IMG/VR virus record: IMGVR_UViG_2563366879_000001
Location: 1 to 34,760 of that record
DNA length: 34,760 nt
Origin: a virus
Taxonomy: Duplodnaviria; Heunggongvirae; Uroviricota; Caudoviricetes
Direction: 5' to 3' (one strand)
In this document: piece after piece, positions 19,768 through 21,364 of the stretch
Position numbering within the stretch: position 1 is the stretch's first letter
Layout: every line of letters begins with the position of its first letter
The notes under the pieces: model-generated
The model's input: only the letters and a program-made list of their open reading frames with translations
What the model was told of the DNA's origin: nothing
Database searches by the model: none
Position numbers and translations under genes: made by a program

Positions 19768-21364
19768 AAACGTCCACCATTCCCACCCTTCTGGGGCCGG
19801 ACGGCATGACATCGCTGCGTGAATATGCCGGTTATCACGGCGGTGGCAGCGGATTTGGTGGGCAGTTGCGGGCGTGGAACCCACCGAGTGAAAGTGTGGA
19901 TGCAGCCCTGCTGCCCAACTTTACCCGTGGCAATGCCCGCGCAGACGATCTGGTACGCAATAACGGCTATGCCGCCAACGCCATCCAGCTGCATCAGGAT
20001 CATATCGTCGGGTCTTTTTTCCGGCTCAGTCATCGCCCAAGCTGGCGCTATCTGGGCATCGGGGAGGAAGAAGCCCGTGCCTTTTCCCGCGAGGTTGAAG
20101 CGGCATGGAAAGAGTTTGCCGAGGATGACTGCTGCTGCATTGACGTTGAGCGAAAACGCACGTTTACCATGATGATTCGGGAAGGTGTGGCCATGCACGC
20201 CTTTAACGGTGAACTGTTCGTTCAGGCCACCTGGGATACCAGTTCGTCGCGGCTTTTCCGGACACAGTTCCGGATGGTCAGCCCGAAGCGCATCAGCAAC
20301 CCGAACAATACCGGCGACAGCCGGAACTGCCGTGCCGGTGTGCAGATTAATGACAGCGGTGCGGCGCTGGGATATTACGTCAGCGAGGACGGGTATCCTG
20401 GCTGGATGCCGCAGAAATGGACATGGATACCCCGTGAGTTACCCGGCGGGCGCGCCTCGTTCATTCACGTTTTTGAACCCGTGGAGGACGGGCAGACTCG
20501 CGGTGCAAATGTGTTTTACAGCGTGATGGAGCAGATGAAGATGCTCGACACGCTGCAGACACGCAGCTGCAGAGCGCCATTGTGAAGGCGATGTATGCCG
20601 CCACCATTGAGAGTGAGCTGGATACGCAGTCAGCGATGGATTTTATTCTGGGCGCGAACAGTCAGGAGCAGCGGGAAAGGCTGACCGGCTGGATTGGTGA
20701 AATTGCCGCGTATTACGCCGCAGCGCCGGTCCGGCTGGGAGGCGCAAAAGTACCGCACCTGATGCCGGGTGACTCACTGAACCTGCAGACGGCTCAGGAT
20801 ACGGATAACGGCTACTCCGTGTTTGAGCAGTCACTGCTGCGGTATATCGCTGCCGGGCTGGGTGTCTCGTATGAGCAGCTTTCCCGGAATTACGCCCAGA
20901 TGAGCTACTCCACGGCACGGGCCAGTGCGAACGAGTCGTGGGCGTACTTTATGGGGCGGCGAAAATTCGTCGCATCCCGTCAGGCGAGCCAGATGTTTCT
21001 GTGCTGGCTGGAAGAGGCCATCGTTCGCCGCGTGGTGACGTTACCTTCAAAAGCGCGCTTCAGTTTTCAGGAAGCCCGCAGTGCCTGGGGGAACTGCGAC
21101 TGGATAGGCTCCGGTCGTATGGCCATCGATGGTCTGAAAGAAGTTCAGGAAGCGGTGATGCTGATAGAAGCCGGACTGAGCACCTACGAGAAAGAGTGCG
21201 CGAAACGCGGTGACGACTATCAGGAAATTTTTGCCCAGCAGGTCCGTGAAACGATGGAGCGCCGCGCAGCTGGTCTTAAACCGCCCGCCTGGGCGGCTGC
21301 AGCATTTGAATCCGGGCTGCGACAATCAACAGAGGAGGAGAAGAATGACAGCAGAGCTGCGTAA
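19764..21364 (+). pseudogene. B: Portal protein B with a 1-bp deletion frameshift (fragments 19764..20585 and 20582..21364)
   Basis: Both fragments match lambda B. The total span is 1601 bp against 1602 bp expected for a 533-aa product. The frame breaks at ..MLDTLQ (about 20551..20560), where lambda reads ..LQNTQLQSAIVKAMYAA. Confidence 0.8.

Follow-up and report, generated by a model that had tools for sequence, protein, structure and literature searches.

The window analysed here is a stretch of 34,760 nt that forms the last 34,760 bp of the 594,168-bp NCBI scaffold KE136672.1 (GCA_000407825.1) of Escherichia coli KTE19 and carries a lambda-type prophage. Its portal gene B lies between W (19561-19764) and C (21345-22661), a position that was confirmed by tblastn with the lambda proteins. 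The gene appears as two adjacent ORFs on the same strand, which jointly span 1601 nt, compared with 1602 nt for lambda B (record coordinates 2836-4437). The first ORF (19764..20585) encodes 273 aa with the C-terminal end ...MEQMKMLDTLQTRSCRAPL*, in which MKMLDTLQ is followed by TRSCRAPL, while the second ORF (20582..21364) encodes 260 aa from a GTG start and has the N-terminus MKAMYAATIESELD. The exact 273-aa and 260-aa products are found in NCBI as EOU64963.1 and EOU64964.1, each named "portal protein B [Escherichia coli KTE19]". The features of the locus are as follows:

19764..20585, plus strand: 5' part of portal gene B, comprising codons 1-265 in frame, 8 shifted codons (TRSCRAPL) and TGA (ORF list; tblastn with gpB 1-273; TIGR01539; EOU64963.1)
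20559, plus strand: deletion site in codon 266, a single A as compared with AA in lambda and all relatives (MAFFT, blastn gaps, direct reading)
20583..20585, plus strand: premature TGA resulting from the frameshift, overlapping the GTG at 20582 (GTGA) (ORF list, sequence)
20561..21364, plus strand: 3' part of gene B, comprising codons 267-533 and the stop, shifted to the -1 frame with respect to the 5' part (tblastn, TIGR01539, EOU64964.1)

A MAFFT alignment of window positions 19400-21700 with lambda (J02459) and E. coli MS6198 showed that one A is absent after position 20558, which is the sole indel in 2.3 kb. At this site, lambda and MS6198 read CAGAACACG whereas the window reads CAGACACG, corresponding to the codons CAG AAC ACG versus CAG A-C ACG. 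The identical lone gap was present in the blastn gap lists against the prophages of strains Z1323MEC0001 (hereafter L003) and EcPF15, and lambda, MS6198, L003 and EcPF15 each have an annotated intact 1602-nt portal gene. The base is missing from gpB codon 266 (AAC, Asn), so that the frame shifts at N266; the original frame resumes at 20561 and reaches the normal stop at 21364. In this 3' part, gpB residues 266-533 are matched at 99.3% identity (tblastn). Its frame is open from a stop at 20474, with the called start being GTG at 20582 (codon V274) and the next candidate being ATG at 20591 (M277).

Profile searches gave the same picture. The N-terminal fragment matches positions 2-231 of TIGR01539 (portal_lambda) with 199.2 bits, and the C-terminal fragment matches positions 240-457 with 239.5 bits; because both scores exceed the curated cut-off of 172.7 and the two matches cover adjoining stretches of the profile, the fragments are halves of one gene rather than a chance pair. 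PF05136 (Phage_portal_2) also matches both. Since the frame of about 533 codons is broken at codon 266, with a stop at 20583-20585, the locus represents a pseudogene of the lambda-type portal family and not a functional member. A sequence-only reading of this DNA had proposed that a lambda-type gene B carries a 1-bp deletion frameshift within 20545-20590, and on this point MAFFT, tblastn and the gap lists agree: the interval covers both the deletion and the premature TGA, the arithmetic of 1601 versus 1602 bp and the break after MLDTLQ are correct, and the alignment to lambda B that it had suggested as a check revealed one missing A and no other length difference in the gene.

Re-insertion of the A gives a 533-aa ORF, which differs from lambda B at 10 nt and 3 aa and from E. 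coli MS6198 at 3 nt. The repaired gene is thus nearly identical to lambda B and free of other decay, suggesting that the lesion is recent. A megablast search with positions 19700-21400 retrieved lambda and many lambdoid phages at 99.3-99.5% identity as well as thousands of E. coli prophages, the best of them at 99.8% and most in the 95-99% band; among the matches listed, the best ones all cover 1702 bases per 1701 query bases. When a 121-bp query centred on the site was searched against complete E. coli genomes, 3,201 of 5,426 were matched and the deletion allele was absent from all of the about 4,959 portal places found. The best identity of 99.2% equals exactly the one gap, and therefore none of these E. 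coli copies has the deletion. Furthermore, a 29-mer specific to the deletion allele had no exact match in IMG/VR, in the JGI metagenomes or in the GTDB species representatives (one genome per species, which gives low power), and the wild-type 30-mer, used as a positive control, was found on at least 120 IMG/VR contigs. An allele that is shared or lineage-wide is ruled out by these negatives in the E. coli genomes, GTDB, IMG/VR and the JGI metagenomes, together with the positive wild-type control. A literature search on strain KTE19 returned no matches. Overall, as judged from these sequence comparisons, the portal lesion is private to the KTE19 strain or clone and is recent.

We consider that the deletion is very probably a genuine, strain-private loss-of-function mutation, which would represent a recent neutral decay step in an already defective prophage. 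Its chief competitor is a sequencing or assembly error, with the strain truly having AA and an intact 1602-nt portal gene, and this we regard as unlikely. Both portal products are also encoded on a Logan contig of run SRR652402, whose entire 15,973 bp are identical to window positions 14495-30467 (100%), and a third contig of 10-20 kb likewise carries both. The Logan assembly was made by another pipeline, and the recurrence of the deletion in it, that is, the same base call from two different pipelines, argues against an assembler artefact. On the other hand, the Logan contig may derive from the reads behind the NCBI assembly, and it is conceivable that the reads share a systematic artefact or that the mutation exists only in the sequenced culture. 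It is also in favour of an error that every known occurrence of the allele goes back to a single strain or clone (the KTE19 scaffold and the Logan contigs 100% identical to it), and that the gene is perfectly preserved except for the missing base, although the latter fits a very recent mutation equally well. Against an error stands the nature of the site: the affected run is an AA dinucleotide (the nearest runs of at least four bases being T5 at 20470, T4 at 20514 and T4 at 20641), while a T6 run (nt 251-258 of B) is where the lesions of other assemblies are concentrated, and consensus indel errors outside homopolymers are rare in short-read assemblies. In addition, other private frameshifts were sought in the window by comparison with lambda, L003 and the prophage locus L008, and none was found in the coding late genes; the remaining indels relative to the relatives are in-frame, intergenic or compensated. 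A generally error-prone assembly is ruled out by this lack of any further private frameshift in 35 kb, in which the 19 other late genes are full-length. The sequence-only reading had preferred a real mutation to a sequencing error on the grounds that the site is not a long homopolymer. With two pipelines in agreement, an AA dinucleotide at the site and no other private frameshift in the late genes, that preference is favoured here as well at the level of the assemblies.

The position of the break within the portal fold is informative as to its consequence. Cryo-EM structures of lambda gpB exist (PDB 8k38 and six others), and the limits of its domains are residues 24-249 and 368-452 for the wing, 250-279 and 343-367 for the stem, 280-342 for the clip and 453-511 for the crown (PMC10721106). 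Residue 266, where the frame breaks, is midway along the first stem helix and precedes the clip, the tunnel loop and the crown. All that remains in the N-terminal product is the initial portion of the wing plus half of this helix, while the clip, second stem helix, tunnel loop, remaining wing and crown are missing. The clip is the docking surface for the terminase and the gpW adaptor. Because these portal domains are missing, the dodecameric ring should not form, and no DNA-filled, tail-competent head would then be produced from the prophage's own genes. Lambda B amber mutants give no infective particles, and from the fold and such classical lambda genetics we infer that the KTE19 portal is a null allele. 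Shell-like structures can still form in the absence of gpB, but DNA is not packaged and tails are not joined. The earlier statement that no capsid can be assembled without a portal thus holds with regard to the block in assembly but not in its wording, for which "no infective particle" is more exact according to established lambda genetics.

Lesions are also present outside the late genes. The left part of the window is collinear, at 97.7-98.4% identity, with a prophage adjoining icd in several E. coli genomes, and includes the following features:

1..1127, minus strand: integrase gene split between an ORF for the catalytic domain (1-492) and another for the arm-binding domain (588-1127) (PF00589 and PF09003 on separate ORFs)
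1284..3857, plus strand: IS3-family element interrupted by ISEc21 (Pfam HTH_Tnp_1, rve and DEDD_Tnp_IS110; annotation of the collinear L003)

The intE gene of the relative L003 is annotated as "frameshifted", and the window shows no gap against L003 in the integrase stretch. The nested insertion consists of IS3 orfA (1284-1622), a truncated orfB (1665-2132) and a remainder extending to about 3857, with the transposase of ISEc21 (IS110 family) at 2456-3532. This IS3::ISEc21 structure fills the space from xis to O, which is the normal place of the pL operon and the immunity region; as the xis-O interval contains nothing else, exo, bet, gam, N, cI, cro and cII cannot be accommodated. After the IS elements come O, P, the nin region, Q and the lysis genes. 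As shown by tblastn with lambda proteins, nu1, A, W, C, D, E, FI, FII, Z, U, V, G, T, H, M, L, K and I are all full-length and in a single frame, and so are the first 777 residues of J up to the scaffold end, leaving the portal gene as the only broken late gene in the window. With the integrase gene split and IS3::ISEc21 in place of the genes between xis and O, functions for excision and lytic regulation have been lost, and the prophage is cryptic. This status, which the sequence-only reading had also assigned, rests mainly on these older, shared lesions, and the portal frameshift that had been cited in its support is a later, strain-specific addition. Because the prophage already lacks the integrase frame and the pL/immunity region, the loss of the portal is of little consequence for the phage.

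As a separate observation on this region, the replication gene O (3894-4790) is an intact 298-codon ORF in the window, whereas O of L003 has a 1-bp deletion in a T run (window site 4537) and is annotated as "frameshifted"; members of this prophage family therefore differ in their private frameshifts.

A further question is whether gene B could still be functional, either through a -1 ribosomal frameshift or slippage that restores the frame, or through co-assembly of two separately made halves into a two-piece portal. We regard this as highly improbable. The arrangement has some features that would suit it, in that the stop overlaps a GTG (GTGA, 20582-20585), the downstream frame is open from 20474 and both fragments score above the family cut-off; moreover, the same operon contains a true -1 frameshift site, the lambda G/T heptamer GGGAAAG, which is kept at 26997-27003 at the end of G, with G and T both intact. 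However, a scan of 20474-20585, the only usable frame overlap, found no X XXY YYZ heptamer and no homopolymer run of at least four bases near the site, which leaves programmed recoding unsupported and is in line with the earlier remark that programmed recoding is not known for lambda B. Conservation of the frameshifted arrangement is also lacking, with 0 of about 4,959 copies in E. coli and 0 matches in three other collections, and programmed -1 ribosomal frameshifting and transcriptional slippage were rejected on these two grounds. The resemblance to the lambda G/T programmed frameshift is confined to the operon and the -1 direction needed: G/T has the conserved GGGAAAG, whereas the B site is without a slippery sequence and is unique to one strain. 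As for separately made halves, the sole Shine-Dalgarno-like element (AAGG, 20585-20588) is separated from the ATG at 20591 by 2 nt, a spacing that is too short, and the split would cut the first stem helix, drop residues 266-273 and place 8 foreign residues at the ring core. Reinitiation at GTG 20582, or at ATG 20591, which lies 6 nt past the TGA, might yield a C-terminal polypeptide. It is scarcely credible, though, that both halves are translated by such reinitiation (at GTGA 20582-20585 or ATG 20591) into a working two-piece portal, or that the tail and lysis genes are useful to the host with heads abolished.

Under the preferred reading of a genuine loss-of-function mutation, one A of the AA in codon 266 would have been lost in the KTE19 lineage, with a replication error as the likeliest cause. 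Ribosomes beginning at the usual start codon would then make gpB 1-265 followed by 8 unrelated residues and a stop, and this truncated product is presumably non-functional. The integrase frame and, to the IS elements, the whole pL/immunity region would have been lost beforehand, so that the loss of the portal would be one more recent decay step, probably a neutral one.

Compared with lambda, the window has an identical synteny of nu1-A-W-B-C-D-E and 99.3% nucleotide identity over the gene-spanning query, and the repaired protein differs at 3 of 533 residues; the window gene is one base short in codon 266 and split into 273 and 260 aa, which in effect makes it similar to a B amber mutant. Its combination of a frameshifted integrase, an IS replacing the regulatory region, cargo and a lesion in a morphogenetic gene resembles that of defective lambdoid prophages such as DLP12, Rac, Qin and e14 of K-12 and the Sp prophages of O157 Sakai, and defective lambdoid prophages commonly carry lesions of this sort. 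Unlike the K-12 cryptic prophages, in which most structural genes are lost, the KTE19 prophage has an unusually complete late operon. The stf frameshift is mentioned in PMC10721106. It is a similar case, found in the laboratory lambda (lambda PaPa), in that a silent frameshift has inactivated a single structural gene while the lambda late region is otherwise intact. The two cases differ in that stf is dispensable, lambda PaPa being viable, whereas B is essential for head assembly.

Interruptions of this gene also occur elsewhere. Of 94 IMG/VR loci examined, all containing the wild-type 30-mer and extending far enough to include a complete gene, about 8 have a broken portal frame, indicating that disruption of lambda-type portal genes is commonplace. 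In some of these loci 1-bp indels lie at nt 252, 258 and 1196, and others have complex indels at the T6 run of nt 251-258; two carry large insertions downstream of about nt 823-835, and one is truncated. The portal frameshift of KTE19 is a known kind of event with no unusual mechanism. Four of the IMG/VR loci (L012, L019, L025 and L067) have the portal broken at the T6 run (GGGTCTTTTTTCC) at nt 251-258, and such breaks may be slippage or sequencing errors. Two others (L035 and L045) have more than 10 kb inserted in the gene at about nt 823-835, and the junction shows a duplication of about 13 bp.

With regard to annotation, EOU64963.1 and EOU64964.1 should be treated as halves of one pseudogene, and prophage predictors should not score the element as intact. 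The locus also offers a clean example of early decay, that is, a near-lambda late operon inside a prophage whose regulatory region has already been destroyed by IS elements. Infecting lambdoid phages can still acquire late genes from such prophages through recombination, and the portal allele of KTE19 could be passed on in this way only if the crossover leaves out the deletion.

Several other features of the window deserve mention. The 12-mer equivalent to cosN (16930-16941) reads GGGCGGAAGGCG versus GGGCGGCGACCT in lambda, with 5 of the last 6 bases being different, and the cosQ-side flank (16900-16929) differs too; the collinear relative L003 has the canonical sequence. Among the 5,426 complete E. 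coli genomes, a 100% match to the 111-bp cos region was found only in EcPF15, in a prophage at argU that is also defective, and no phage record exceeded 86.5% over this region. This departure from the canonical cos may mean that packaging is impaired at a second point, or it may be natural variation of a rare kind.

Between P and the nin region (5743-10731) lies cargo consisting of a gene for a 1302-aa inverse autotransporter (intimin/invasin-like; IAT_beta and several Big_1/Invasin_D3 repeats) and a convergent gene for a 347-aa alpha/beta hydrolase (BD-FAE), both of which are common to the prophages at icd and at argU (EcPF15). From the lysis genes to cos (14295-16900), the window has no alignment with L003, which has iss (bor-like) and a TonB-family gene there. 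In this part, the ORF at the Rz position (14343-14870, 175 aa) is of a different type from rzpD of L003, no ORF between Rz and nu1 received a name from NCBIfam, and the ORFs 15722-16147 and 16393-16785, which have no family matches, are common to the window and EcPF15.

At the right end, the tail-tip gene J (32430-34760) is cut by the window end, which is also the end of scaffold KE136672.1. The assembly presumably broke at a repeat shared among prophages, and the prophage is seen here only up to this gene. Two tail genes are in-frame length variants of their lambda counterparts: the tail tube gene V (25882-26580) has 13 gap positions relative to lambda V, with 233 aa called versus 246, and the tape measure gene H (27430-30024) encodes 865 residues versus 853 in lambda, a gain of 12.
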